IMG/VR virus record: IMGVR_UViG_3300023174_000047
Span: 32,001-96,000 of that record
Source of the DNA: a virus
Lineage: Duplodnaviria; Caudoviricetes
Length of the DNA: 64,000 nucleotides
Reading direction: 5' to 3' (one strand)
Positions 7,266 to 44,046 of this stretch are shown piece by piece. The notes under the pieces are model-generated. The model saw only the letters and a program-made list of their open reading frames with translations, was not told the origin of the DNA and searched no databases. The first letter of the stretch is position 1. Every line of letters starts with the position of its first letter. Position numbers and translations under genes: made by a program.

Positions 7266-7721
7266 TTATTCACAGTCTTGATTTGCTTTGCATTCTTTAC
7301 ACTCACTGCAATCGCAGCCTTCTTCAGCATATTTGCAATGCATGTGCTCTTCTGCTTCTTCTTTTCCGTGAATAGCTTTGTTTATTTTTTTGCGACGATT
7401 TTTGAGAAATTCATCTGTTTTATCTTTTTTGCCATCATTATTGATATCATCATCCTCTTCACCAACATCATCAAGTTTTTCAAGATATAATGACATCACA
7501 TGTTGATATGCAAAATCAAAAACATTTCCTGGCTGTGCACGTTCAACTAAAGCATTTAATTCATTGGCAAATGCAGATTCTTTTTTTAGAAATTTCTTGA
7601 TTTCTTTTTTGGGCATTTTTTTAGCTACTTTGGCTGCAGCACCTTTTGCTTTGCCTTTGCTTTTTTTAGCACCCATAACGGCACCGAAGAATTTGCGTTG
7701 TTTTTCTGATTTTGCTGGCAT
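7266..7721 (-). CDS. Hypothetical late protein with basic MPAKSEKQRKFFG N-terminus and a DINNDG acidic loop
   Basis: 151 aa ORF; CATAAATA upstream; dockerin/EF-hand-like DINNDGKKDKTD; Cys-rich tail. Confidence 0.7.
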   Translation of the reverse strand: MPAKSEKQRKFFGAVMGAKKSKGKAKGAAAKVAKKMPKKEIKKFLKKESAFANELNALVERAQPGNVFDFAYQHVMSLYLEKLDDVGEEDDDINNDGKKDKTDEFLKNRRKKINKAIHGKEEAEEHMHCKYAEEGCDCSECKECKANQDCE

Positions 7722-7732
7722 AATGCTTTTAT

Positions 7733-8650
7733 TTATGCTGCTGCGCGCATTTTTAAAAGCATTTTTTCAATGGCTAAATCTTTCATTTTGAGTTCTACTT
7801 CGTAATCAACAGGCATACCGAAATCTTGAGGCAACAGATTAGCATAGTCTGCATGCTTGCGAGTACCATCAATTCCTTCACTGTAGTGAAATACAGGACG
7901 ACAAGGCCATGTGCTATATGCTACATCAAATGCTTCTTGATGACTCATGGCATCTCCGATCATTTCATGATGCAAGTTATCATATGTTACCGGAATTTGT
8001 TCAGTCTTGTACAATTGATTGTAAAGCTCTTGAATAGTCCATTGACCTTGCTTGTTGTCATTCACTTCAACAACTAACCGCTTGCGTACAGAGTCGGAAC
8101 ATTTGGATAGATTGCGACGAAACGTTTGCCCCAGTTTCTCCACGTCGCCTTGTTGTCGAATGTGAATATTAAGAGGAGACTCGTATCCCCGGGGCAACCC
8201 AAGGAGATCAAAGATCTCACCATGTTGCTCTAGGTCTCTAATAGAGTTTGCAACAACACCGTCATCTTCACTTGTTAGGGAGATGAATTCAGAAGGATGC
8301 GCACTGGTTCGAATGTTAGTATCAATAATGGCCTGCTTAGCTTCATCAATGGCATCGAAGATTTTATCTGCATCATCAAAGTCGAGTAGTGTCATGTTGA
8401 CAAGAGGGTGGTTGACAACTGGTACAAGATCTGAAGGTATGCGATATCGCTCAATGCCCATGTCCTTGCACATGTGTACAATTTTAGCAACAGCTTTAAA
8501 GTTGTTGATGATACGCAGTGCAAGAATTGATTCTGCTTGTTTGCGCGGCAGTTTAGCAAACCGCGTGTAGGTCATAGTTTGAAACTTAATGCCTTGCTCT
8601 TTACATTTAAGAGAAATGCAGCACAGACCGAGTGAATAATTATATTTCAT
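7733..8650 (-). CDS. uvsE: UV-damage endonuclease (UvsE/UVDE family)
   Basis: LGLCCIS, YRIPSDLVP, RTSAHPSEF, RLVVEVND, TYDNLHH, FHYSE, HADY and EVELKMKDLAI motifs. Confidence 0.93.
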   Translation of the reverse strand: MKYNYSLGLCCISLKCKEQGIKFQTMTYTRFAKLPRKQAESILALRIINNFKAVAKIVHMCKDMGIERYRIPSDLVPVVNHPLVNMTLLDFDDADKIFDAIDEAKQAIIDTNIRTSAHPSEFISLTSEDDGVVANSIRDLEQHGEIFDLLGLPRGYESPLNIHIRQQGDVEKLGQTFRRNLSKCSDSVRKRLVVEVNDNKQGQWTIQELYNQLYKTEQIPVTYDNLHHEMIGDAMSHQEAFDVAYSTWPCRPVFHYSEGIDGTRKHADYANLLPQDFGMPVDYEVELKMKDLAIEKMLLKMRAAA

Positions 8651-8690: not shown

Positions 8691-8722
8691 AAAAAACCCG
8701 AGCAGCTTTGTGCTGCTCGGGT
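8691..8722 (-). terminator. Intrinsic terminator downstream of queF
   Basis: acccgagcagc-N5-gctgctcgggt hairpin followed by a U tract on the minus strand. Confidence 0.85.
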
Positions 8723-8759: not shown

Positions 8760-9692
8760 TTATTGTTTTGTTGTTTTAATATGGCAATATTCAATATTAC
8801 TCAACGAACCGTGCAGTAGTGTCTCACATGAAACACGTTCCGGATTGATATCAATGCCGCCGCGACGAGCATACAAACAAATGACTGACAATGCATCTGG
8901 CTGCAGCACATCATGCAAACGCTTGTAAATGGTCTCACAAATCTCCTCATGAAAGTGGCACTCATCACGGAAAGAAATGATGTAGCGCAGCAGTGATTCA
9001 GGAGTCACAGTCTTGCTACCGTTGTAATGAATCAAAATATCACCAAAATCTGGCTGCGAAGTTACACGACAATTACTTTTGAGTAATGCACTATGATACT
9101 TGTATGTGTTACGGTTGAAACCACGATGCTTTGCATGATCAATGACTTCAAGTAGGTCGGGTGTCTCTTGATACACAGTCACCTCACCATCATCATCATA
9201 AATATTTTCAAGAGTCTCATACTCTTCGAGCATGTACTCATCTATTACAGATGTTTGCTCACAAATTGCTTCATAATTGCTGAAAACCTTGACTTGAACG
9301 TCAGTCTCTAACAACTGACTCAAATCACGTGATGCATGTGCTGCAATGGCGTCGCGGACTTCATCTGCTGTTTCAGCCAATTTGGTCATGTTGAATGAAT
9401 TGAAATACAATTTGATGGATTTAGATTCAACAATATACTTACTAGAGCAAGGGTACACAATCTTTCCGATGCCTGTAACAGGCAATCCTTTGTGTGTGAG
9501 TGCAGATATCTCATAAGCATTCCATGTATCATTACCATAGAAAGGTATGTTATCATCTGAAATATCTAGATGCTTGCGGTTGTTGCTACGAGGCTCTCTT
9601 ACAAGAAGAGATGCATCATACTGAGACTTGTACTCCGAGGTCTTGCCGAGATGTACGCTAATGTTGCTGTTATCGAGTTGGGTTTGTGCCAT
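8760..9692 (-). CDS. queF: NADPH-dependent preQ0 (7-cyano-7-deazaguanine) reductase, bimodular type
   Basis: LGKTSEYKSQYDASLL, DTWNAYEIS, IVESKSIKLYFNSFN, LLKSNCRVTSQPD (catalytic Cys), FHEEICE and YARRGGIDINP. Likely start MAQTQ at 9692. Confidence 0.95.
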   Translation of the reverse strand: MAQTQLDNSNISVHLGKTSEYKSQYDASLLVREPRSNNRKHLDISDDNIPFYGNDTWNAYEISALTHKGLPVTGIGKIVYPCSSKYIVESKSIKLYFNSFNMTKLAETADEVRDAIAAHASRDLSQLLETDVQVKVFSNYEAICEQTSVIDEYMLEEYETLENIYDDDGEVTVYQETPDLLEVIDHAKHRGFNRNTYKYHSALLKSNCRVTSQPDFGDILIHYNGSKTVTPESLLRYIISFRDECHFHEEICETIYKRLHDVLQPDALSVICLYARRGGIDINPERVSCETLLHGSLSNIEYCHIKTTKQ

Positions 9693-10227
9693 ATTGTTTG
9701 AGTGTTTCTTTGATTGTGTGCATGCGCTGTTCAATGCTACCAGCTAATTTAACAATTTGTTCTGGTTTGCAATAATTATTTAAATAAGAATCAATCCGCT
9801 GTGCAATATCATTTCTAAAATCAATGCTGGTTGATCTTTCACCATCATCAACCAAGTCAAAATCTGCTGAACAATAGAAAAAGATATCCACTTTGTTAAT
9901 AAGCAAACTAACTAAATGCCATGCATACTCATGCACCCACGTGCTTACTTTTCCATGTTTATAAAGCCAGTGCGTATATATTAACCCATCAACGATGCAT
10001 CTATCCATAATAACATCACCTTTAATGAACGAATTGGCAAGATGTTGATTGAGTATTAGCAATTGAGTCATATCACCTGCCTGCTCGTTGATGGGTACAT
10101 TATACTGTCTCTTGACAAGACGAGTAACCTCTTCTACATATGTAAAATTATCACCAAATTCTTGCTTGCACAATTTAAGAAGAGATGATTTACCAGTGCT
10201 ACCTGCTCCTGTGAATGATATTACCAT
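9670..10227 (-). CDS. P-loop nucleotide-monophosphate-kinase-like protein (AAA_28/NadR-kinase-like)
   Basis: N-terminal ISFTGAGSTGKSS Walker A, MDRCIVD and DDGERS. Likely start 10227. Confidence 0.8.
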   Translation of the reverse strand: MVISFTGAGSTGKSSLLKLCKQEFGDNFTYVEEVTRLVKRQYNVPINEQAGDMTQLLILNQHLANSFIKGDVIMDRCIVDGLIYTHWLYKHGKVSTWVHEYAWHLVSLLINKVDIFFYCSADFDLVDDGERSTSIDFRNDIAQRIDSYLNNYCKPEQIVKLAGSIEQRMHTIKETLKQYGTNPTR

Positions 10228-10231
10228 GTTG

Positions 10232-10792
10232 TTACAATATTGTGTTAATGAATTTCTTCCACTGTTCAATAGAAGTTTTTTTGAGAGTATTAATCACTTC
10301 ATCAGCATTTTTGCAATGAGCAATTGTTACTTTGTCATATGATGCAATGGGACCACCATCAATTTCAGATGTGACTCTATGAATAACACATCCACTCATA
10401 GGCATCTTCAGATCATATGCTTTTTGCTGAGGATCTTTACCTTTGAGTTGAGGAAACTTTACAATATCTCCTGGGTGTCCATTGAAGATCTGGTGCTGTT
10501 CACAAACATCACCAGGTACAATTTTTAGCCACCCATGCAAAGTAACAACTGGATCTTCATACGGTGAAAAAGCATTGAATAACGATTTATATGTTTTGCT
10601 GTTGATAATATCTTTATAAGATAACCAAATTAAATTGGTATTACCCCACTTGCTTATATCCACTTCTTCAGCATTTGTAATGACTGCATCTGGCCAAATG
10701 CCAAGCTCTGAGCATACTGCATGCAGCTCACTACCCGTCTGCGAGAACATTGCTATCCAACAACGCTTTGTTTTTTGTTTATTTTCTTTCAT
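10232..10792 (-). CDS. PurN-like formyltransferase, candidate dPreQ1 formyltransferase (DpdN-like)
   Basis: AMFSQTGSEL, FNGHPG, GKDPQ and GCVIHRVTSEIDGGPI formyltransferase motifs; located between queF and the dpdA-like gene. Confidence 0.85.
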   Translation of the reverse strand: MKENKQKTKRCWIAMFSQTGSELHAVCSELGIWPDAVITNAEEVDISKWGNTNLIWLSYKDIINSKTYKSLFNAFSPYEDPVVTLHGWLKIVPGDVCEQHQIFNGHPGDIVKFPQLKGKDPQQKAYDLKMPMSGCVIHRVTSEIDGGPIASYDKVTIAHCKNADEVINTLKKTSIEQWKKFINTIL

Positions 10793-11586
10793 CCTGCAAT
10801 AATGTGTTTGAAGTTTTTAATGTTGTATTTGATCTTTCTCATTTGTTCATCTGTAACCTCTGCATCAATCATTTCAACAAGTTTCTGTGACGGTTTAATC
10901 TCTAAACCAAATTCTCCGTTGTATGCATATCCCTTGATACCACACACGACAGGATTGCTTGTGTCTACAGAGTAGATGTTGCCTACGCCTTTGCGGGTAT
11001 AATTAGAAAATTCACGAGCAAGCGAACACCCCAGCAAGTGATGTGGTTTGTTATGATTCCAGATACCATCGTGAATCAAATCATCAATGAGTGAAATTCT
11101 GCCATTGCATTGAAGTTCAAGTTTAGTATTACCCAGCCCAGTGAATTGATAATAAGACATATCAAAGCTAATGGCAATCATATTAGCATTATCCGACATA
11201 AACTTATAGCAATCAACAATCTCACCATAAGTTTTACCTTGAATTGTTCCAATTCTCATGCCCGGCAGATCATCATATGTAGATGCAAACTTAATGAAGT
11301 TCTCAATAGTTTTATAGCCATCTTCTAGTACATCAGGAAGAACATAATATGTTGGTTGTAGTTTTTTAATCCATTCAGCATATTTTTCCGATTCAAATGC
11401 TTCACCCAACTCAAAAATACTATTATCAAGCAGTACATCTCTGCCTTGCTGACGAGCATAAAAAAAGTATTCGTAATACTGCGGGTGTGTCTCAAATAAA
11501 TGAACTAACGCATATGAATAGTCTGTTAAATCATCAACTTCTTTCATGATGCTAATGGGTGCCTCGTGGGCTACTTTGATTTTCAT
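10789..11586 (-). CDS. dpdA: TGT-like DNA deazaguanine transglycosylase (DpdA family)
   Basis: TIM-barrel-like pattern LLDNSIFE, VLPDV, IGTIQG, HHLLG and SVDTSNP, comparable to TGT/DpdA; co-transcribed with queF and the formyltransferase. Confidence 0.75.
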   Translation of the reverse strand: MKIKVAHEAPISIMKEVDDLTDYSYALVHLFETHPQYYEYFFYARQQGRDVLLDNSIFELGEAFESEKYAEWIKKLQPTYYVLPDVLEDGYKTIENFIKFASTYDDLPGMRIGTIQGKTYGEIVDCYKFMSDNANMIAISFDMSYYQFTGLGNTKLELQCNGRISLIDDLIHDGIWNHNKPHHLLGCSLAREFSNYTRKGVGNIYSVDTSNPVVCGIKGYAYNGEFGLEIKPSQKLVEMIDAEVTDEQMRKIKYNIKNFKHIIAG

Positions 11587-20785: not shown

Positions 20786-21253
20786 TTATGCTTCCCATGG
20801 ATATCTAACCCATTGTGAGTTTTCTACAGCAAATATATCAGGCACATAATATGAATCATGTGCCCGGTGCAGCGTTGCGAAAATATGATTGCTGCAGTTG
20901 CTGTTATTTTTGAGATACTCTTTGATGCAGGAAATTGTTCGACCTGTATCACAAATATCATCTACAATCAAAACATTTCTGCTATCTACAAAGTCAGCAA
21001 GTTCTTTACCTATGTCATTGTAGAATTCAATGGTATCTGTTTGCTTCATATTCTCATAAGTTTTTATACCAATGATTCTCATTGGTATATTTAAATTATG
21101 CGCTAGCCACACTGCAGGCACTACACCGCCTCGCAGCAATCCGATGATGCAGTTAAATGATAAATTATTATCTGCTTCATACTGTTTAATTTTGCTTTGT
21201 AGTGAGTTGCAGAGATCATCAAATTCATGCCAGCTAAGATAATGTTTATCCAT
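20786..21253 (-). CDS. Type I purine phosphoribosyltransferase (Gpt/Hpt-like)
   Basis: IIGLLRGGVVPA, PRPP loop VLIVDDICDTGRT and WVRYPWE. Likely start MDKHYLSW. Confidence 0.9.
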   Translation of the reverse strand: MDKHYLSWHEFDDLCNSLQSKIKQYEADNNLSFNCIIGLLRGGVVPAVWLAHNLNIPMRIIGIKTYENMKQTDTIEFYNDIGKELADFVDSRNVLIVDDICDTGRTISCIKEYLKNNSNCSNHIFATLHRAHDSYYVPDIFAVENSQWVRYPWEA

Positions 21254-21286
21254 GACTAAATATATACAACCACACCACTTCTCAAC

Positions 21287-21598
21287 ATGAATAATACTGA
21301 TTTTAGATGCATCCTTGAAAATTATTACCGTAACATAGAAACTATGCAGCCTGCAAGTCAGCGCTTCAAGGCAGAATATGACAGGCGCAACAGTACACCT
21401 GAGTGGAGTGGAATGACTGATCCCTCCAAGGGACCTCAAATGCTAACACCATCTGTAGATGAAGAGAATGTTGGTGGTCGAGATAAAATGAGCAAAATAA
21501 AAGCGCTCATTGAAATAGAAATTCAACGAGCGCCTAAAAAAATGACTTATGCTATTAGAGTTTTGAAGAAGTTGCTGAATCAGATGGAGAGTCTGTAG
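21287..21598 (+). CDS. Hypothetical protein
   Basis: 103 aa ORF divergent from the PRT gene. Confidence 0.55.
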   Translation: MNNTDFRCILENYYRNIETMQPASQRFKAEYDRRNSTPEWSGMTDPSKGPQMLTPSVDEENVGGRDKMSKIKALIEIEIQRAPKKMTYAIRVLKKLLNQMESL

Positions 21599-31836: not shown

Positions 31837-32434
31837 AAATTATTATAATGTTGCGACCCAACCCTGTATCTTCAAATACATAGTTTGGATTTATTGCTTT
31901 GATTGCATTTTCAAATTCTCTATGAGTCGGCCAACCAAGCCCACCAATATCAACACAATCATCAACAATGATTACATGGTCATTTCTTTTTGAGCATTCT
32001 CGAATTGCGTTAAATTCACTAATTACGGGCGAGTAATTAGGTGTATGTGCATCAAGTAGCATAACAAACTGTTCATCACTATTTTTTGTTAAAAAATCTC
32101 TGAGAAACATTGTTGAACTAGCATTATAAAAATCAATGTTGCTGAATTGCTGTTTTATGCTCTTATATTTTTCAAGTAGATTAATAGAGGTGTAGCTGTT
32201 GCCTGTAATGTATTGCTCAACTGTTGATACTCTATTAAAATGTTCAGCAAAGATTATTGCTGTATCACCTTCAAAAGTACCAAGCTCAATTGCACTTGCA
32301 ATATTTTCTAATGCAATTTTATTTCTATAATTGTATAGAACCTGCGTAAACACATTAGGTACATCTGTTACACCTGGCTTGCCAGCTACATTTGACCATC
32401 TTACATCATTTTGTTCGTATTGTTTGAATTTCAT
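31814..32434 (-). CDS. Class I SAM methyltransferase-like protein
   Basis: IELGTFEGDT, LLDAH and IIVDD. Confidence 0.75.
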   Translation of the reverse strand: MKFKQYEQNDVRWSNVAGKPGVTDVPNVFTQVLYNYRNKIALENIASAIELGTFEGDTAIIFAEHFNRVSTVEQYITGNSYTSINLLEKYKSIKQQFSNIDFYNASSTMFLRDFLTKNSDEQFVMLLDAHTPNYSPVISEFNAIRECSKRNDHVIIVDDCVDIGGLGWPTHREFENAIKAINPNYVFEDTGLGRNIIIIYEPTRIS

Positions 32435-37848: not shown

Positions 37849-38697
37849 ATGGCAACTGACCCTATTGGAATTAATATCAAGCAACTACCGCAAATAAATT
37901 TTGCGCAGAGTGGTGATTTTTTTATCATTGAGACACCTGATGGTACCGGAATCATTGACTTTAACGACATCGTCATTGATCTCGATCAAACAAATTTTAG
38001 ACCCACAATTGAAGCACTTGTCACATCAACTATTGGGCTGTGTGCGCAATATACAGCATTGAGTAGCAATGTTTATAATGAATTGGCTCAGATTCTAAAA
38101 ACTTCTGTTGCTGTATTCAAAAACATCTCCCCACTCTCGGGCGGTCAGTATTTTTCCGGTGCAGGCATTGATTTGCCTCTCAATTTTATTGAAGTTAATC
38201 AGCTTTCATTGCAGCAATCAGCAACTGATTTGAATAACATCAACATATGTACTGATTTGACTCTATCAACAGCAGCAAGCGCATTGCTGTTGCCTGCAGG
38301 TGTATACAAGACATCCATTGATGCCAGCATCACATCAGCAACATCTGGTACAACATGGATGCAAATTTATCTATATCAAAATTCTCCCCCTGCGCGAGTT
38401 TTGTTGCTCGGATCTCCATTTATATCAACCGGTGAAAATCAGCAAAAGAATCTCAACATCGACGGATACTTCACTCTTTGTAAAGATGCAGAAGTTGCAA
38501 TCAAAGCAACAACATATGGTAAATTTAAGATAGGTAGTACTCAGTTTAAAACTCTTTATAGCACTGCTTCTGCATCTCCACTGAGTGCCAGCTTGTTTAA
38601 GATGCTACAGACAAGTGCATGCAACATCAGCATGTATCTTGAAAAGATTGCTGATGTTGCAGCCCCAGCTATTAATATACAGTCTACGGTACTATAA
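37849..38697 (+). CDS. Putative virion structural protein (tail fibre/decoration-like)
   Basis: Late promoter CATAAATA at 37834-37841; N-terminal IKQLP...DFFIIETPDGT fibre-attachment-like pattern; beta-rich C-terminus. Confidence 0.5.
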   Translation: MATDPIGINIKQLPQINFAQSGDFFIIETPDGTGIIDFNDIVIDLDQTNFRPTIEALVTSTIGLCAQYTALSSNVYNELAQILKTSVAVFKNISPLSGGQYFSGAGIDLPLNFIEVNQLSLQQSATDLNNINICTDLTLSTAASALLLPAGVYKTSIDASITSATSGTTWMQIYLYQNSPPARVLLLGSPFISTGENQQKNLNIDGYFTLCKDAEVAIKATTYGKFKIGSTQFKTLYSTASASPLSASLFKMLQTSACNISMYLEKIADVAAPAINIQSTVL

Positions 38698-39418
38698 TTC
38701 CTGTATCTTTGAGCAATTGCTGCTTTTGCTGTTTAATTAAATCTTCAACAGCATGCTGTGCATCTTCTGGTTTAGTTGCATTTTGCAGTTCTTCAACCCA
38801 TGAGTCATCTGGTACAACCATGCTACCATTTTCATGTATATAGTTTGCGATTTCTTTGATTCGCATAAATCTATTAGAAGAATGAATAGGAATTATTGCA
38901 GGCCTATCCTCGTTGTCAAACAGGAAAAACTTATCATTGCATATGTATTGATTATAAATTACTTCAAAGAGATTATCAATCTCCTTGATATAAACACTGT
39001 CTGTTTCTCTCATATTATCTTGTGCAATTGTAATGCGCTCAGTATAAGGAATCCAAAAAATAATGTCTAGATTCTTTAGAGATTCTCTTACCCTTTTAGC
39101 ACATTTTTCAATAAAAGCGTCATCAATATCTGATGACGCTTTTTCATTCGCCCAGAGAGAATATATAACGTTATCCAGTGGGCATCTATCATATGCAATG
39201 TGATCATCTGCGGTTTTACCCTGCATACTATCAACCATAAAATCAAGAATTGCTTCCTGACCTTGCTTGTTTACATTCTTGCTATGTGTAATACTACTTT
39301 CAGCAATGATGTCTCTATATGTTTTTGACGGTGTAGAATACATGGGCCATACTGTCAAAAAATCTTTGATTAGTGTGGTTTTTCCGGTATTCGCAGTACC
39401 GCTAAATGCAATTCTCAT
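38684..39418 (-). CDS. P-loop kinase-like protein (AAA_28), paralog of 9670-10227
   Basis: IAFSGTANTGKTT, YDRCPLD, DIIFW and QDNMRE. Confidence 0.8.
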   Translation of the reverse strand: MRIAFSGTANTGKTTLIKDFLTVWPMYSTPSKTYRDIIAESSITHSKNVNKQGQEAILDFMVDSMQGKTADDHIAYDRCPLDNVIYSLWANEKASSDIDDAFIEKCAKRVRESLKNLDIIFWIPYTERITIAQDNMRETDSVYIKEIDNLFEVIYNQYICNDKFFLFDNEDRPAIIPIHSSNRFMRIKEIANYIHENGSMVVPDDSWVEELQNATKPEDAQHAVEDLIKQQKQQLLKDTGIIVP

Positions 39419-39646: not shown

Positions 39647-40153
39647 TCATTTATTTTCCTCTTCCTCTAAATCAACATCTTGTTGTTGTTTTTTCTTTGT
39701 TATTTTCTGTTTTTGTGCAGGCAGTACAATTAATTGTTTGTTGATTGCTTCAGTGAGATCTCTTTCAGTTTCTTTTGTGATATACATTTTATGTAGTGCT
39801 TCATTGGGTGTGACCCATTTGTAAGATCTGTGCTCACTGCTTAGTTTAACATTATTTGTACTGGTTTTGCACAAAAATAATTCAAAATTATGCAATCTAT
39901 ATACACTTGTGAATGATGTAGTTAATAGTTGTGTCTCCTCTTTCACTTCCCTTCTCGCACCTTCTTGTGGCGTCTCACCACGTTTAATGTGTCCGCCGGG
40001 CAAATGCCACTTTTGTTTGTTCATCGGCAGCAAAAGCAACAGCTTATCATTATAAACAATTATTACTTTGCTTACATGCTTTGTATCTTCATTATTCATA
40101 TGTTCGTCGGAAAAACATTGATCGGGTATTCCCTCGCTCGTTATACAGAGCAT
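39647..40153 (-). CDS. Nudix hydrolase
   Basis: Nudix box LPGGHIKRGETPQEGARREVKEET; start at 40153 or 40099. Confidence 0.92.
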   Translation of the reverse strand: MLCITSEGIPDQCFSDEHMNNEDTKHVSKVIIVYNDKLLLLLPMNKQKWHLPGGHIKRGETPQEGARREVKEETQLLTTSFTSVYRLHNFELFLCKTSTNNVKLSSEHRSYKWVTPNEALHKMYITKETERDLTEAINKQLIVLPAQKQKITKKKQQQDVDLEEEENK

Positions 40154-41013
40154 GTTTTATCCCATGCACTCACGTGCAGGCGAGACAGTCCGGTAAATCC
40201 ATATTTCTTTGCCATTTCTAGCACGAAAGCAGTGCGTTCATGAAAATTCTCCCGACTATCCATTCCAGGCATGCACACAACTTGAGTCATGGGGATGTTA
40301 AACGGTACAAGATAATCAGTAATAATTTCTTTAATGTCTTCTTCTGTTGAAATTACAAACTTGAATCGTGAATTCCAGTGGTTTTTAATGCGCTCTATGG
40401 CTTCAGGTACAATGCGATCTTCTTTATCAAGGCCAGAGTTACTTAACTTCGCACTGCAGTTGATTTGATGAAGTTCATCATACAGCATATCATCAATGTA
40501 TTGTGTGCCATTGGTCTCAATCTCATTATATACACCATAATCAATGGCAGAGTCTTCTGCTTGATAAACATCAGCAAGATGATAAATAAAATTTGCAATG
40601 CATTCCTGATGCTTAGGCAAGGTTGGTTCACCGCCGGTCCAGATCAGATGAGTCTGGCCACTCAAAATCCAATCTAACATTGTAGAGCCGTCATAATTTT
40701 TATGTTCTCTCCAGCGATTGATGAGATATTCAAACGGCTTTTTTTCACCGAAAAGCCACACAGGTAGAGAGTCGCATGTCCAGGTTGCTTTGCCTGCTGC
40801 ATGTAAGTCTCCTTTAAAAGACCCTGGATCTGTGTTGCCTAAGCCTGCACCCTTCACTTGTTTTGCAACAGCTCGAGTTGCGCCGCATGTAAGGTTGCAG
40901 TCTTTAAGACGAATAAAATAAGAGGGGCAGCCTGTTGTGATGCCTTCTCCCTGTACAGAATAGAAATCTTCAGAAATTACCAAATGGTTGTAGTTGTTAA
41001 CAATATCACTCAT
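40141..41013 (-). CDS. queE: 7-carboxy-7-deazaguanine synthase (radical SAM)
   Basis: EDFYSVQGEG, FIRLKDCNLTC...CDS, WTGGEP, EIETNGT, CSAKL and RLHV. Confidence 0.93.
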   Translation of the reverse strand: MSDIVNNYNHLVISEDFYSVQGEGITTGCPSYFIRLKDCNLTCGATRAVAKQVKGAGLGNTDPGSFKGDLHAAGKATWTCDSLPVWLFGEKKPFEYLINRWREHKNYDGSTMLDWILSGQTHLIWTGGEPTLPKHQECIANFIYHLADVYQAEDSAIDYGVYNEIETNGTQYIDDMLYDELHQINCSAKLSNSGLDKEDRIVPEAIERIKNHWNSRFKFVISTEEDIKEIITDYLVPFNIPMTQVVCMPGMDSRENFHERTAFVLEMAKKYGFTGLSRLHVSAWDKTCSV

Positions 41014-41054: not shown

Positions 41055-41813
41055 ATGTATATGAGCAAAAAACCCCGCTTGCGCAAAGCGCTGGCAGATT
41101 TAGAGTTCGGTGATGGCGACATTGAATTACACACATCTACGACAAGCAATTCACTTGGAATTAGAAACAAATATCAGCTCAATGATGTGCATAAATCGTT
41201 TTTAGATACCTGCTTATATGAAAAAACAAAAATGGTGTTTGTAGATGGACCTGCAGGCACTGCAAAGACATTTTTAGCAGTTTATGCTGGTCTTTTGCTG
41301 CTTCAAGAAAAGAAAATAAAAAATATTATATATATCCGCAGCATTGTTGAATCAGCAACCAAGAGCATTGGAGCTCTTCCAGGCGAGTTGGATGAAAAGT
41401 TCAAGCCATGGAGTTTACCATTGCTAGACAAGTTGAATGAACTTCTCTCTCCACACACTTCAAGTGAACTAATCGATTCCGGCATCATCAAATGCATTCC
41501 TGTTAACTTCGTGAGAGGTTTGACCTTTCATGATTCACTCGTCATAATTGATGAGTTTCAAAACCTCACTTTTGAAGAAGGTGTCACTATTTTGACACGT
41601 TTTGGTCACAACTCAAAATACATTGCCATTGGAGATGCCCGTCAAGCAGACATTGGATCAAAGTCAGGATTCAAAGACTTATTTAATGCTTTTGATGATA
41701 CAGAAAGCGCAGAAAATCACATTCACACATATCGGTTTGGTGAGAACGAAATTGTGCGAAGCAAAATTCTGCGCTTCATTGTTGGTAAGATTGAGCGGAT
41801 CAAAAAGCATTAA
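41055..41813 (+). CDS. phoH: PhoH-like ATPase
   Basis: GPAGTAKT, GALPGEL, VRGLTF, IIDEFQN, LTRFG, GDARQAD and IVRS. Confidence 0.95.
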   Translation: MYMSKKPRLRKALADLEFGDGDIELHTSTTSNSLGIRNKYQLNDVHKSFLDTCLYEKTKMVFVDGPAGTAKTFLAVYAGLLLLQEKKIKNIIYIRSIVESATKSIGALPGELDEKFKPWSLPLLDKLNELLSPHTSSELIDSGIIKCIPVNFVRGLTFHDSLVIIDEFQNLTFEEGVTILTRFGHNSKYIAIGDARQADIGSKSGFKDLFNAFDDTESAENHIHTYRFGENEIVRSKILRFIVGKIERIKKH

Positions 41814-42436
41814 CCCCAAGAGGTGCCCTTGAACCAATCACTTTTACCGGTTGATACATGTGAGCCAACGTTTGCTGGTCTGCCTCCATTGCGTGTAGTT
41901 TCAGTCTGAGGCAGCGGAGTTATTTCATGAATTGTAATTACATCTGCTGCCTCTGAATATCCACCATCTTCAGGAATTTCCCTATCCTTGCAGCCAAAGC
42001 AATTACTATAAATTGCAGAATTATCTTCGTGCTCAAACACCTCAACTTGATTGACGCTGCAGCGTTCACCATATTTCTCTTTAAGAAACTGTGATGCAAT
42101 TTCGAAGCATTTCTCAGCAGCTCTTTCTACTCCAACACCTTTTTCAAAAACACGAAGCTGAATGATGCCTGCTGCATCTAATGCTCTAAATTGATCAATT
42201 GCCGGATCATCAGCAGCTACACAATATGTGTGATCAAAAATGTATTGTAGTTGTTTTTTGAGCTCTTTAAGGCTGCCAAAATCAACCGCCCAATTTTTAT
42301 CATCCAACTCTTCACATCTGAACCAAAACTTTGCTTTAAGCTGGTAGCCATGAATGAATTGGCAGTGTGAATGTTTTGCTTTCCACTGACGAAAAGCACA
42401 TGATCCCAACTCTATTACTTTAGTACTTGTAAACAT
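41810..42436 (-). CDS. queD: 6-carboxytetrahydropterin synthase
   Basis: CAFRQW, HCQFIHGY, WAVDFG, FDH, GVE and EVFEHEDNSA. Confidence 0.92.
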   Translation of the reverse strand: MFTSTKVIELGSCAFRQWKAKHSHCQFIHGYQLKAKFWFRCEELDDKNWAVDFGSLKELKKQLQYIFDHTYCVAADDPAIDQFRALDAAGIIQLRVFEKGVGVERAAEKCFEIASQFLKEKYGERCSVNQVEVFEHEDNSAIYSNCFGCKDREIPEDGGYSEAADVITIHEITPLPQTETTRNGGRPANVGSHVSTGKSDWFKGTSWG

Positions 42437-42465: not shown

Positions 42466-43359
42466 TCAAGATTGCTGGGCCGAAAAGTTTATAACAAAAT
42501 CGTTTGAATTAGGAACTCTTGCAAGAAGACCGTATCCTTGAACTAGTGAGTTGTCTTTTATATTCATACATGTAAAAAGAGCATTTTCGTTTAAAAATTC
42601 TGGCTTTGATGTGATATCTGTAAATTTAATGCCTGCTTTTTGCGGTGGCTGATTAGTAGGTGGTATGGGTGGTGGATTAGTAGGTGGTATGGGTGGTGGA
42701 TTAGTAGGTGGTATGGGTGGTGGATTAGTAGGTGGTATGGGTGGTGGATTAGTATTTTCAAAAAGATATGTATAAAAATTAGCTATATCTCTAAAGCTTT
42801 TATTCTCAAGTACATTTCTAGTTTTATTTAGAAGCTGTATTTTTAATATATAAAAGGTCTTATTACTCGACCCGGTAAAGGAAGCTGTACCTTTGCTGTC
42901 TACAACTCTAAAGGATTTACCCAACATATCTTGCGAAATCATTGTTATTCTGTCTTTGCTTGTTGTTGGTGTTTTTTGCGTTGAATTATTTGTATCTGAA
43001 CCAGGCACCGCTGATGTTCCTGTAACTTGAGGTCCAAATACTGCCCTCGCAGCTGTACCTGCTACGCCGCGTGTAATGCTGCCTAATGCACCCAATGCAC
43101 CAACTGGCTTCTGGCCTGCAGCACCTTGTAGGTAATTAGCTACCATATTTTCAATTACAACTGCTTTTTTAGGAATATTTAGAGTACTATTGTTATAAAA
43201 AAATTTGATTTCATTTTCTGTTTCTGCAAGAATATATCCAACATATCCATCATATTGACCATAATCTTCAGCATATTTGTTAAGTGGATCAACTTTGAGT
43301 CGCACTTTTTGGAGATTTTTTTCAAGCACTGCATTATATTGTTCAAAAAATTTTGACAT
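42466..43359 (-). CDS. Hypothetical late protein with Pro-rich repeat
   Basis: N-terminal VRLKVDP...YVGYILAE; (TNPPPIPP)x4; TAAATA upstream. Confidence 0.7.
   Translation of the reverse strand: MSKFFEQYNAVLEKNLQKVRLKVDPLNKYAEDYGQYDGYVGYILAETENEIKFFYNNSTLNIPKKAVVIENMVANYLQGAAGQKPVGALGALGSITRGVAGTAARAVFGPQVTGTSAVPGSDTNNSTQKTPTTSKDRITMISQDMLGKSFRVVDSKGTASFTGSSNKTFYILKIQLLNKTRNVLENKSFRDIANFYTYLFENTNPPPIPPTNPPPIPPTNPPPIPPTNPPPIPPTNQPPQKAGIKFTDITSKPEFLNENALFTCMNIKDNSLVQGYGLLARVPNSNDFVINFSAQQS
42651..42754. repeat. 24-bp tandem repeat, 4 full copies plus a partial
   Basis: Unit gattagtaggtggtatgggtggtg, in frame, encoding TNPPPIPP on the minus strand. Confidence 0.95.
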
Positions 43360-43404: not shown

Positions 43405-44046
43405 ATGGAATTGCTCAAATACGCCAACGGTAACCTACCGCAATCAGAAGAAGAACGTCAAAAAATGATTGATGAAGCATCAAAACATTATGCAGAGTTT
43501 ATGACTGCATTGAAGTTTGACTTCAAACAAGATCCTAATAGTGCAGATACACCTCGTCGTGTTGCTAAAGCCTGGGTAAATGATCTTATTGCAGGATGTT
43601 ATTCATCGCCGCCAAATATTACATCGTTTGATAATATTGATGGATATGATGGAATGGTGTGCCAGAATAATATAAAAGTTGTATCCATGTGTTCTCATCA
43701 TCATTTGCAGTTCACTGGGCGTGCACATGTAGCATATATTCCATCAAAAGAAGGTAAAGTCATAGGTCTCAGCAAGCTCAATCGCATTGTTGACTGGTTT
43801 GCTCGTCGGCCACAGGTACAAGAAGCATTAACATCTCAAATTTTTGATTATGTTGATAAGGTTTGCGTAAAAAACAAAGGTGTAGCAGTGATGATTGAAT
43901 GCAATCATACATGTTGCAGCAACCGCGGAATTAAGCATGACTCAACAATGAGAACAGCTCGTGTAAGTGGTGCATTTCATGATGAAAGCGGTGCAAGTAG
44001 AGCTGAATTTTATAAATTCATTGAATTTGCGCAGACTCGTTATTAA
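43405..44046 (+). CDS. folE: GTP cyclohydrolase I
   Basis: DTPRRVAK, SMCSHHH, VIGLSKLNRIV, RRPQVQE and HTCCSNRG. Confidence 0.97.
   Translation: MELLKYANGNLPQSEEERQKMIDEASKHYAEFMTALKFDFKQDPNSADTPRRVAKAWVNDLIAGCYSSPPNITSFDNIDGYDGMVCQNNIKVVSMCSHHHLQFTGRAHVAYIPSKEGKVIGLSKLNRIVDWFARRPQVQEALTSQIFDYVDKVCVKNKGVAVMIECNHTCCSNRGIKHDSTMRTARVSGAFHDESGASRAEFYKFIEFAQTRY

Follow-up and report, generated by a model that had tools for sequence, protein, structure and literature searches.

A dpdA3-dpdN-kinase-queF operon in an uncultured phage predicts fdPreQ1 in place of guanine and suggests a possible nucleotide-level route of base exchange

Is guanine replaced by a 7-deazaguanine in the DNA of an uncultured phage, and at which stage would the base be exchanged? 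These questions are raised by a window of 64,000 nucleotides (the whole stretch of DNA that was analysed), which corresponds to positions 32001–96000 of the 203,774-bp IMG/VR virus record IMGVR_UViG_3300023174_000047, rated 96% complete. Four tightly packed genes on the minus strand at 8760–11586 formed one operon in the order dpdA3-dpdN-kinase-queF, which confirmed the four same-strand open reading frames (ORFs) of the queF-kinase-formyltransferase-dpdA operon that an initial annotation had proposed. The base 7-(formylamino)methyl-7-deazaguanine (fdPreQ1) very probably replaces G in the phage DNA, whichever the stage of its insertion, because the operon shares orthologous genes and their order with the measured system of the Flavobacterium phage immuto_2-6A. 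The same relationship supported the fdPreQ1-modified, restriction-resistant DNA predicted in the initial annotation. The fuller statement, in which fdPreQ1 is the product and both the exchange and the formylation occur on a free dG nucleotide or nucleoside before replication, is put forward tentatively, at chances slightly short of even. With a likelihood near the balance point but not above it, DpdA3 would be the first enzyme with the fold of tRNA-guanine transglycosylase (TGT) that acts on a free deoxyguanosine nucleotide or nucleoside, replacing its guanine by a 7-deazaguanine.

The names DpdA3, for the transglycosylase class, and DpdN, for the formyltransferase, were introduced by Cui, Hutinet and colleagues, and the DNA of immuto_2-6A contained 345,000 fdPreQ1 per 10^6 nucleotides, with no dG and no deoxy-preQ1 (dPreQ1) (PMC10516641). 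The DpdA3 phages CP220, phiST and immuto were the only ones with complete G replacement, whereas the other DpdA classes reached at most 30% (PMC10516641). The annotated order in immuto_2-6A is QueF, 'thymidylate kinase', formyltransferase, a 50-aa ORF and 'DNA guanine transglycosylase DpdA'. Judged by its sequence, the gene set of the window is a diverged, complete further example of this system published in 2023, a fact that the initial annotation had missed. The sole nucleotide-level matches of the operon among 50,697 phage records were Flavobacterium phages of the immuto group. A megablast search of 25 kb of the window against the same records gave no match; hence the phage has no close cultured relative among them. 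Restriction-site counts over the whole genome were uninformative, since avoidance was less marked than expected of an unprotected phage and yet not wholly lacking. Four-letter palindromes containing G/C were mildly scarce (observed/expected 0.74 for CATG and 0.81 for GATC), and those with A/T only were not avoided. CATG was the most under-represented four-letter palindrome in the genome (1025 observed vs 1384 expected, z -12.9).

The first protein of the operon is assigned with firm confidence, from its sequence and model, to the DpdA3 subfamily of the TGT/DpdA superfamily, since it was 39% identical to CP220 gp056, its high-confidence model matched TGTs, and the aspartates Asp54 and Asp208 were invariant. 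The identity to CP220 gp056 was the same for 13 other Campylobacter phage records (E about 1e-47), and the identity to immuto DpdA was 51% over 265 aa (E 3e-87). The phiST protein was linked only through that of Chryseobacterium phage MA9V-3, which was 25% identical to the window protein and 43% to phiST. An AlphaFold model built with 70 diverse relatives had a mean predicted local distance difference test (pLDDT) of 96.7 and a predicted template modelling score (pTM) of 0.92. In a Foldseek search of this model against the Protein Data Bank (PDB), the top 50 matches were all TGTs of bacterial, archaeal and eukaryotic origin (E 7e-9 to 4e-7, query TM 0.53–0.69). The residues invariant in the 70 relatives were D54 (LDNSxFE), D85 (PD), H183-L-L-G186 and D208 (DTSNP). 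The profile placed HLLG...D208 on HLLG...SIDS of the bacterial DpdA 7ui4 with fitting spacing and a weak match (E 0.33); the aspartate of 7ui4, chain residue 276, would equal the nucleophile Asp256 at an inferred offset given by a 20-residue tag. An hhalign comparison with E. coli TGT aligned the QG and YLMG motifs, at a probability of only 15%. The gene shares its genome with 7-deazaguanine synthesis genes, the co-encoding by which the DpdA3 subfamily is recognized. Hence, the TGT-like DpdA candidate, which the initial annotation had called from weak motifs, now stands on homology, model fold and invariant residues.

A canonical tRNA-guanine transglycosylase was ruled out for this protein. 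No PF01702 (TGT) match was found for it, nor across the 204-kb genome at E up to 1. The fold matches and the alignment of relatives showed neither a zinc subdomain nor a conserved Cys/His cluster, and the protein was 110 residues shorter than a canonical TGT (265 vs ~375 aa). The isoelectric points (5.3 vs 6.0 for E. coli TGT) were both acidic and did not discriminate.

DpdN and QueF were equally recognizable, and the roles claimed for them in the initial annotation, a PurN-like DpdN and a true nitrile reductase, were borne out. DpdN was 43% identical to immuto KNV73_gp067 (E 2e-48) and sits between dpdA3 and the kinase gene as in immuto. Its N104/H106/D145 corresponded to the N106/H108/D144 triad of PurN, and both this triad and an N-terminal S17..G20 (SxxG) loop were invariant in 15 orthologues and E. 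coli PurN. This loop is presumably the one that binds the 5'-phosphate of glycinamide ribonucleotide (GAR) in PurN. Furthermore, DpdA3::DpdN fusions occurred as single 447-aa proteins on two independent contigs (L105:554-1897 and L106:2262-3605), both beside an AAA_28 kinase. The transfer of a formyl group to the aminomethyl group of preQ1 (7-aminomethyl-7-deazaguanine) by DpdN is a prediction, in the literature as well (PMC10516641). QueF contained both of its domains above the Pfam cut-offs (QueF_N 2e-34, QueF 2.5e-24) and was 45% identical to immuto QueF. In the comparison with V. cholerae QueF (3bp1, 6e-51), ESKSIKLY, SNCRVTSQPD and FHE aligned to the matching motifs, so that the QueF motif, the catalytic cysteine (the C in SNCRVTSQPD) and the His-Glu pair were retained. 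The score against TIGR03138 was 257.7 bits, under the cut-off of 293.

The kinase was the most constant neighbour of DpdA3 and is not incidental, another point that the initial annotation had missed. It matched PF13521 with 45 bits against a cut-off of 27, and its likely ATG start at 10227 was chosen because of the consensus 'MxISFTG' of 47 relatives. The identity was 35% to CP220 gp057 (E 1e-27) and 30% to immuto gp68. Residues G7, G12, K13, D75-R76, R131 and R138 (Walker A, DR motif and LID arginines) were invariant or nearly so. The model (pLDDT 89) found its best PDB matches in the ribosylnicotinamide kinase domain of NadR, deoxyadenosine kinase, deoxycytidine kinase and thymidylate kinase (TMPK), and the structural matches were limited to small-molecule nucleoside/nucleotide kinases. 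According to the profile comparison (NadR 5e-5, TMPK 5e-4), EExxR and DDGxR motifs are common with NadR and the DR motif with TMPK. A small P-loop kinase abuts DpdA3 in six lineages, namely this phage, immuto, CP220, phiST (gp041), Chryseobacterium phage MA9V-3 and Bacillus phage BSTP12. In CP220 it adjoins DpdA3 although that phage makes deoxy-7-amido-7-deazaguanosine (dADG) and has neither QueF nor DpdN. When phiST gp041 was compared with the kinase profile by hhalign, the P-loop alone aligned; the kinases of phiST and MA9V-3 are AAA_18-type analogous neighbours, with orthology not demonstrable. A predicted complex of DpdA3 and the kinase scored 0.01, which is under the mark and has no bearing either way.

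The six DpdA1/DpdA2 loci used as controls (9g, JG054, Vibrio K251 g3, Microcystis Me-ZS1, Mycobacterium Cracklewink and Rhizobium RHph_X3_2) showed neither a match to the kinase profile nor a Walker A motif at the N-terminus of any ORF. Such loci were found by the accession of phage 9g, and tblastn with E. coli TGT returned only true tgt genes. The genes in order there were Que genes, DpdA, clamp and polymerase, or a ParB-like protein stood beside DpdA. In Cracklewink, a ParB-like nuclease-domain protein (L112:202-861) lies two genes before DpdA, recalling bacterial DpdB. The word 'kinase' is absent from the paper defining DpdA3 (PMC10516641) and from an earlier survey of 2019. A full-text literature search for CP220, 7-deazaguanine and kinase together returned only a biocontrol paper.

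The distribution of these associations was explored in metagenomes. The DpdA3 relatives amounted to 3,674 proteins at E ≤ 0.001 in a 90%-clustered metagenome protein collection and fell into 1,629 clusters when grouped at 50% identity; a DpdA3 relative is encoded on at least 551 IMG/VR stretches. The census covered the 71 IMG/VR loci in which the sequence continued for at least 2.5 kb downstream of DpdA3. DpdA3 was followed by DpdN-kinase-QueF in 23 of the 71, by kinase-QueF in 37 and by the kinase only in 3, so that the kinase abuts DpdA3 in 63; none of the three genes lay within 6 kb in the other 8. In a closer set, 14 of 15 IMG/VR loci had the order dpdA3-dpdN-kinase-queF. The 37 loci without DpdN (among L027–L071) predict many uncultured phages with plain dPreQ1 in place of G, and plain dPreQ1 at 100% replacement is a state hitherto unreported.

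The way in which these enzymes may act together is as follows; the orthology, synteny, folds, conserved catalytic residues and gene associations were observed, and all of the enzymatic steps in this phage, above all the substrate of DpdA3, are predicted from them together with the product. FolE, QueD, QueE and QueC would convert GTP to preQ0 (7-cyano-7-deazaguanine), which QueF would reduce to preQ1. DpdA3, a bare TGT-fold barrel with a candidate catalytic Asp pair, would take guanine out of dGMP or deoxyguanosine and put the deazaguanine in. DpdN would then use 10-formyl-tetrahydrofolate to formylate the aminomethyl group of the mononucleotide, as PurN does with GAR. The kinase would be an obligatory partner of DpdA3 and phosphorylate the modified product towards the triphosphate, a NUDIX, MazG or HD enzyme would clear dGTP, and the phage polymerase would incorporate the modified triphosphate to give a G-free genome, as with hydroxymethyl-dC in T4. 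The steps would follow the gene order. Four observations agree with the nucleotide-level route no less well than with the published one: a kinase with a small-molecule fold is linked to the only DpdA class with 100% replacement, pyrophosphatase-type genes lie nearby, the DpdA3 barrel is bare and has no zinc subdomain, and DpdN keeps the PurN loop that binds the 5'-phosphate of the substrate. Moreover, three published observations were counted in its favour: co-expression of DpdA3 with DpdL in E. coli, in the absence of the kinase, yielded no modified DNA; cells infected with CP220 contained free ADG nucleoside; and all three measured DpdA3 phages were 100% modified (PMC10516641).

Several points weigh against this nucleotide-level route. 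The virus is uncultured and known here from sequence alone, and the evidence from gene neighbourhoods is circumstantial. To our knowledge, all characterised TGT/DpdA enzymes act on polynucleotides and none on a mononucleotide. The NUDIX protein, whose best NCBIfam matches were NudB-like (5e-9) and MutT (5e-8), both under the cut-offs, may just as well belong to folate synthesis as a NudB-like enzyme. The literature contains no biochemical assay for any DpdA3, DpdN or kinase, no DpdA3 has been reconstituted, and the paper that defined DpdA3 favours insertion after replication, proposing it for all DpdA classes (PMC10516641). In the published route, replication uses normal dGTP, and every G of the finished DNA is afterwards exchanged by DpdA3 for preQ1 or formyl-preQ1. 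DpdN would act on the free base or on DNA, and the kinase would be an accessory, either a DpdB-like ATP-using helper or an enzyme of nucleotide salvage. This route is a serious possibility, although its probability was placed clearly below even and somewhat below that of the nucleotide-level route. The homologues of DpdA3 work on polynucleotides and their catalytic aspartates are retained; the kinase is missing within 6 kb of DpdA3 in 8 of the 71 loci. An ATP-using partner of a DNA transglycosylase has a precedent, because bacterial DpdA requires the ParB-like ATPase DpdB (PMC10164549) and a ParB-like protein occurs near an actinophage DpdA, so the kinase could be a helper of a DNA-level reaction. 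However, the fold and motifs of the kinase are those of a nucleoside/nucleotide kinase and not of a ParB-type or DNA-dependent ATPase, and it was missing from the six control loci, in which insertion is established to be post-replicative. To replace all of the roughly 76,000 G in a copy of the 204-kb genome (both strands), a TGT-type enzyme would need a very high turnover, whereas TGT kinetics are slow. The missing zinc subdomain and the failed co-expression without a kinase count against the published route as well.

The two other explanations concern the product and the target. The pathway may end at dPreQ1 or another N-acyl product, with the PurN-like protein serving folate or purine metabolism or transferring a group other than formyl. 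The 37 loci with DpdA3-kinase-QueF and without DpdN indicate that the formylase is dispensable for the core system; furthermore, DpdN activity has never been demonstrated in vitro, and other phage PurN-like groups are unrelated to deazaguanine (PMC10516641). This ending is nevertheless improbable, given the 43% identity and the same operon position as the protein of immuto, whose DNA holds fdPreQ1 and no dPreQ1, together with the intact N-H-D triad and the natural DpdA3::DpdN fusions. Modification of host or phage tRNA with preQ1/queuosine-type bases, instead of DNA, was suggested by the fold itself, which is that of a tRNA-guanine transglycosylase. It is very improbable, because no Pfam TGT match occurs anywhere in the genome, the zinc subdomain is missing, no tRNA gene was found in the window, and it was DNA, and not tRNA, that was shown to be fully substituted in the three phage groups with close orthologues (PMC10516641).

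The remaining genes of the pathway were located elsewhere in the window (Table 1). The folE, queD, queE and queC genes listed in the initial annotation were confirmed by PF01227, PTPS, phrog_2076/NCBIfam and PF06508, respectively. Its count of at least four loci over 50 kb held for the span (52.7 kb in total) and not for the number, which was slightly generous: the genes formed three clusters, at 8.7–11.6, 40.1–44.0 and 60.8–61.5 kb. In the middle cluster, QueE, QueD and FolE are interleaved on both strands with a PhoH-like ATPase and an ORF without a family. PhoH-like ATPases are also encoded no more than about 3 kb from DpdA3 in CP220 (L003:10292-11743) and in the IMG/VR locus L013 (L013:200-919). 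The other ORF encodes 297 aa with five tandem PPIPPTN repeats and had no family match in Pfam, NCBIfam or PHROGs.

Table 1. Positions of the operon, the other pathway genes and the neighbouring features in the window
Feature	Position	Strand	Evidence and remarks
dpdA3	10789..11586	-	265 aa; phrog_19058 at 6e-51; no Pfam family; TGT-fold, zinc-less
dpdN, PurN-like formyltransferase, predicted preQ1 formylase	10232..10792	-	PF00551 at 1.6e-8, above cut-off; ATG overlaps dpdA3 stop
AAA_28 P-loop kinase	9670..10227	-	185 aa from likely ATG; TTG ORF extends to 10269; PF13521 at 1.3e-11
queF, bimodular, predicted NADPH-dependent preQ0 reductase	8760..9692	-	likely ATG 9692; TTG ORF extends to 9734
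Intrinsic terminator at operon end	8696..8722	-	11-bp stem, 8 G-C pairs, 5-nt loop, T run
UvdE-type UV damage endonuclease	7733..8650	-	
Lysine-rich protein	7266..7721	-	151 aa
6-oxopurine phosphoribosyltransferase (PRTase)	20786..21439	-	PF00156 at 2e-16; purine PRTase 1vdm at 4e-18
Second AAA_28 kinase, distant paralogue of the operon kinase	38684..39418	-	PF13521 at 6.8e-10; phrog_2107 (PHROG of the operon kinase) at 6e-11; BLASTP vs operon kinase 3e-5
NUDIX hydrolase, candidate purine-NTP pyrophosphatase	39647..40153	-	PF00293 at 1.1e-16; overlaps queE 3' end by 13 nt
queE, divergent radical-SAM 7-carboxy-7-deazaguanine (CDG) synthase	40141..41013	-	phrog_2076 'QueE-like radical SAM' at 2e-35
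PhoH-like ATPase	41055..41813	+	between queE and queD
queD, 6-carboxytetrahydropterin (CPH4) synthase	41810..42436	-	PTPS at 1.7e-15; 42-46% identity to QueD of immuto, phiST, L020
PPIPPTN-repeat ORF	42466..43359	-	between queD and folE
folE, GTP cyclohydrolase I	43405..44046	+	PF01227 at 1.5e-48; 56% identity to immuto FolE
queC, preQ0 synthase	60759..61499	+	PF06508 at 6e-50; TIGR00364 above cut-off

Two of the preQ0 enzymes had unusual features. QueE had no Pfam radical-SAM match; five NCBIfam QueE models matched residues 13–44, and the identity to MA9V-3 QueE was 32% (E 1e-32). Its cysteines are spaced as CNLTC, an insertion of ~30 residues relative to immuto QueE, and then the third cysteine (WTCDS), compared with C-x3-C-x7-C in immuto. 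QueD carries CxxxHGY in place of the canonical CxxxHGH, as do the proteins of immuto, phiST and L020, with C25, H29 and G30 invariant. Both immuto and phiST, which have the CxxxHGY form, contain modified DNA (PMC10516641). The window QueD also has a C-terminal extension of ~60 aa, which is missing from the QueD of immuto, phiST and L020.

Genes of the NTP-pyrophosphatase type were found in or near the clusters of the four phages: the window phage has the NUDIX gene, immuto a PRA-PH/MazG-like gene two positions away from dpdA3, phiST a MazG gene and CP220 a gene for an HD plus AAA_33 protein. No HD domain was found in a search of this genome. The second AAA_28 kinase lies directly downstream of the NUDIX gene, and the two paralogous kinases could carry out two successive phosphorylations. 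The PRTase was homologous to immuto gp60 (E 5e-21); it was present in the phiST and immuto records and absent from those of CP220, MA9V-3 and BSTP12. Conceivably, guanine set free in the exchange may be returned by this enzyme to GMP and thus to the pathway. The direct conversion of preQ1 to a ribonucleotide by the PRTase as the main route was set aside, because the PRTase is absent in three of the six DpdA3 lineages and DpdA3 would be left without a role. ToyH carries out such a base-to-ribonucleotide conversion in toyocamycin synthesis.

The terminator hairpin, rated strong, lies 38 nt past the queF stop, and the next gene downstream encodes the UvdE-type UV damage endonuclease. A UvdE-type gene also follows queF in three IMG/VR relatives (L005, L006 and L026; 63–99% identity), and this endonuclease would have to cope with G-free DNA. 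The lysine-rich protein encoded beyond it has a Cys-rich C-terminus (CKYAEEGCDCSECKECK) and matches several PHROGs without assigned function.

These results indicate that the fdPreQ1 cassette extends well beyond a single Flavobacterium phage, with thousands of DpdA3 relatives in metagenomes and DpdN, formerly known from four proteins, carried by about a third of the loci examined. The wider value of the finding lies in the kinase, which is missing from the DpdA classes with partial modification and gives a concrete reason for the failed reconstitution of DpdA3. The question raised is whether the polymerase itself produces a G-free phage genome or whether the bases are exchanged after replication.

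The closest known system is that of immuto. Common to both are seven enzymes with 30–56% gene-by-gene identity, the local order DpdA3-DpdN-kinase-QueF and a purine PRTase. The carrier differs, being a larger (204 kb) uncultured phage; all genes of immuto lie within about 8 kb, whereas those of the window phage are spread across 53 kb in three clusters. The candidate NTP pyrophosphatase of the window phage, a NUDIX protein, is encoded beside queE and that of immuto, a MazG-like one, near dpdA3, and the second paralogous kinase is a feature of this genome, unlike immuto. CP220 (Campylobacter, dADG) and phiST (Cellulophaga, 2'-deoxy-7-deazaguanine, dDG) also combine DpdA3 with an abutting small P-loop kinase and a nearby NTP-hydrolase-type gene, and G is fully replaced in their DNA (PMC10516641). 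However, their pathways end with CDG-derived bases, QueC, QueF and DpdN are all missing, and the phiST kinase is AAA_18-type. The phages with DpdA1/DpdA2 (9g, the JG054/iggy group and actinophages) and the bacterial DpdA/DpdB systems likewise use an exchange by the TGT superfamily and a base made by FolE/QueD/QueE/QueC, but the DpdA1/DpdA2 enzymes have about 300–360 aa (9g 317, Cracklewink 357), their DNA is at most 30% modified, and no kinase is adjacent. Precedents for a pre-replicative strategy are the dCTPase, dCMP hydroxymethylase and gp1 dNMP kinase of T4 and the PurZ/DatZ/MazZ set of S-2L. If the nucleotide-level route holds, the likeness would be that an odd dNMP is made, a dedicated kinase carries it forward, a pyrophosphatase clears the canonical dNTP and the replacement is 100%. 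The difference is that there is no homology, and that the base would here be put in by transglycosylation instead of being built or modified on the nucleotide.

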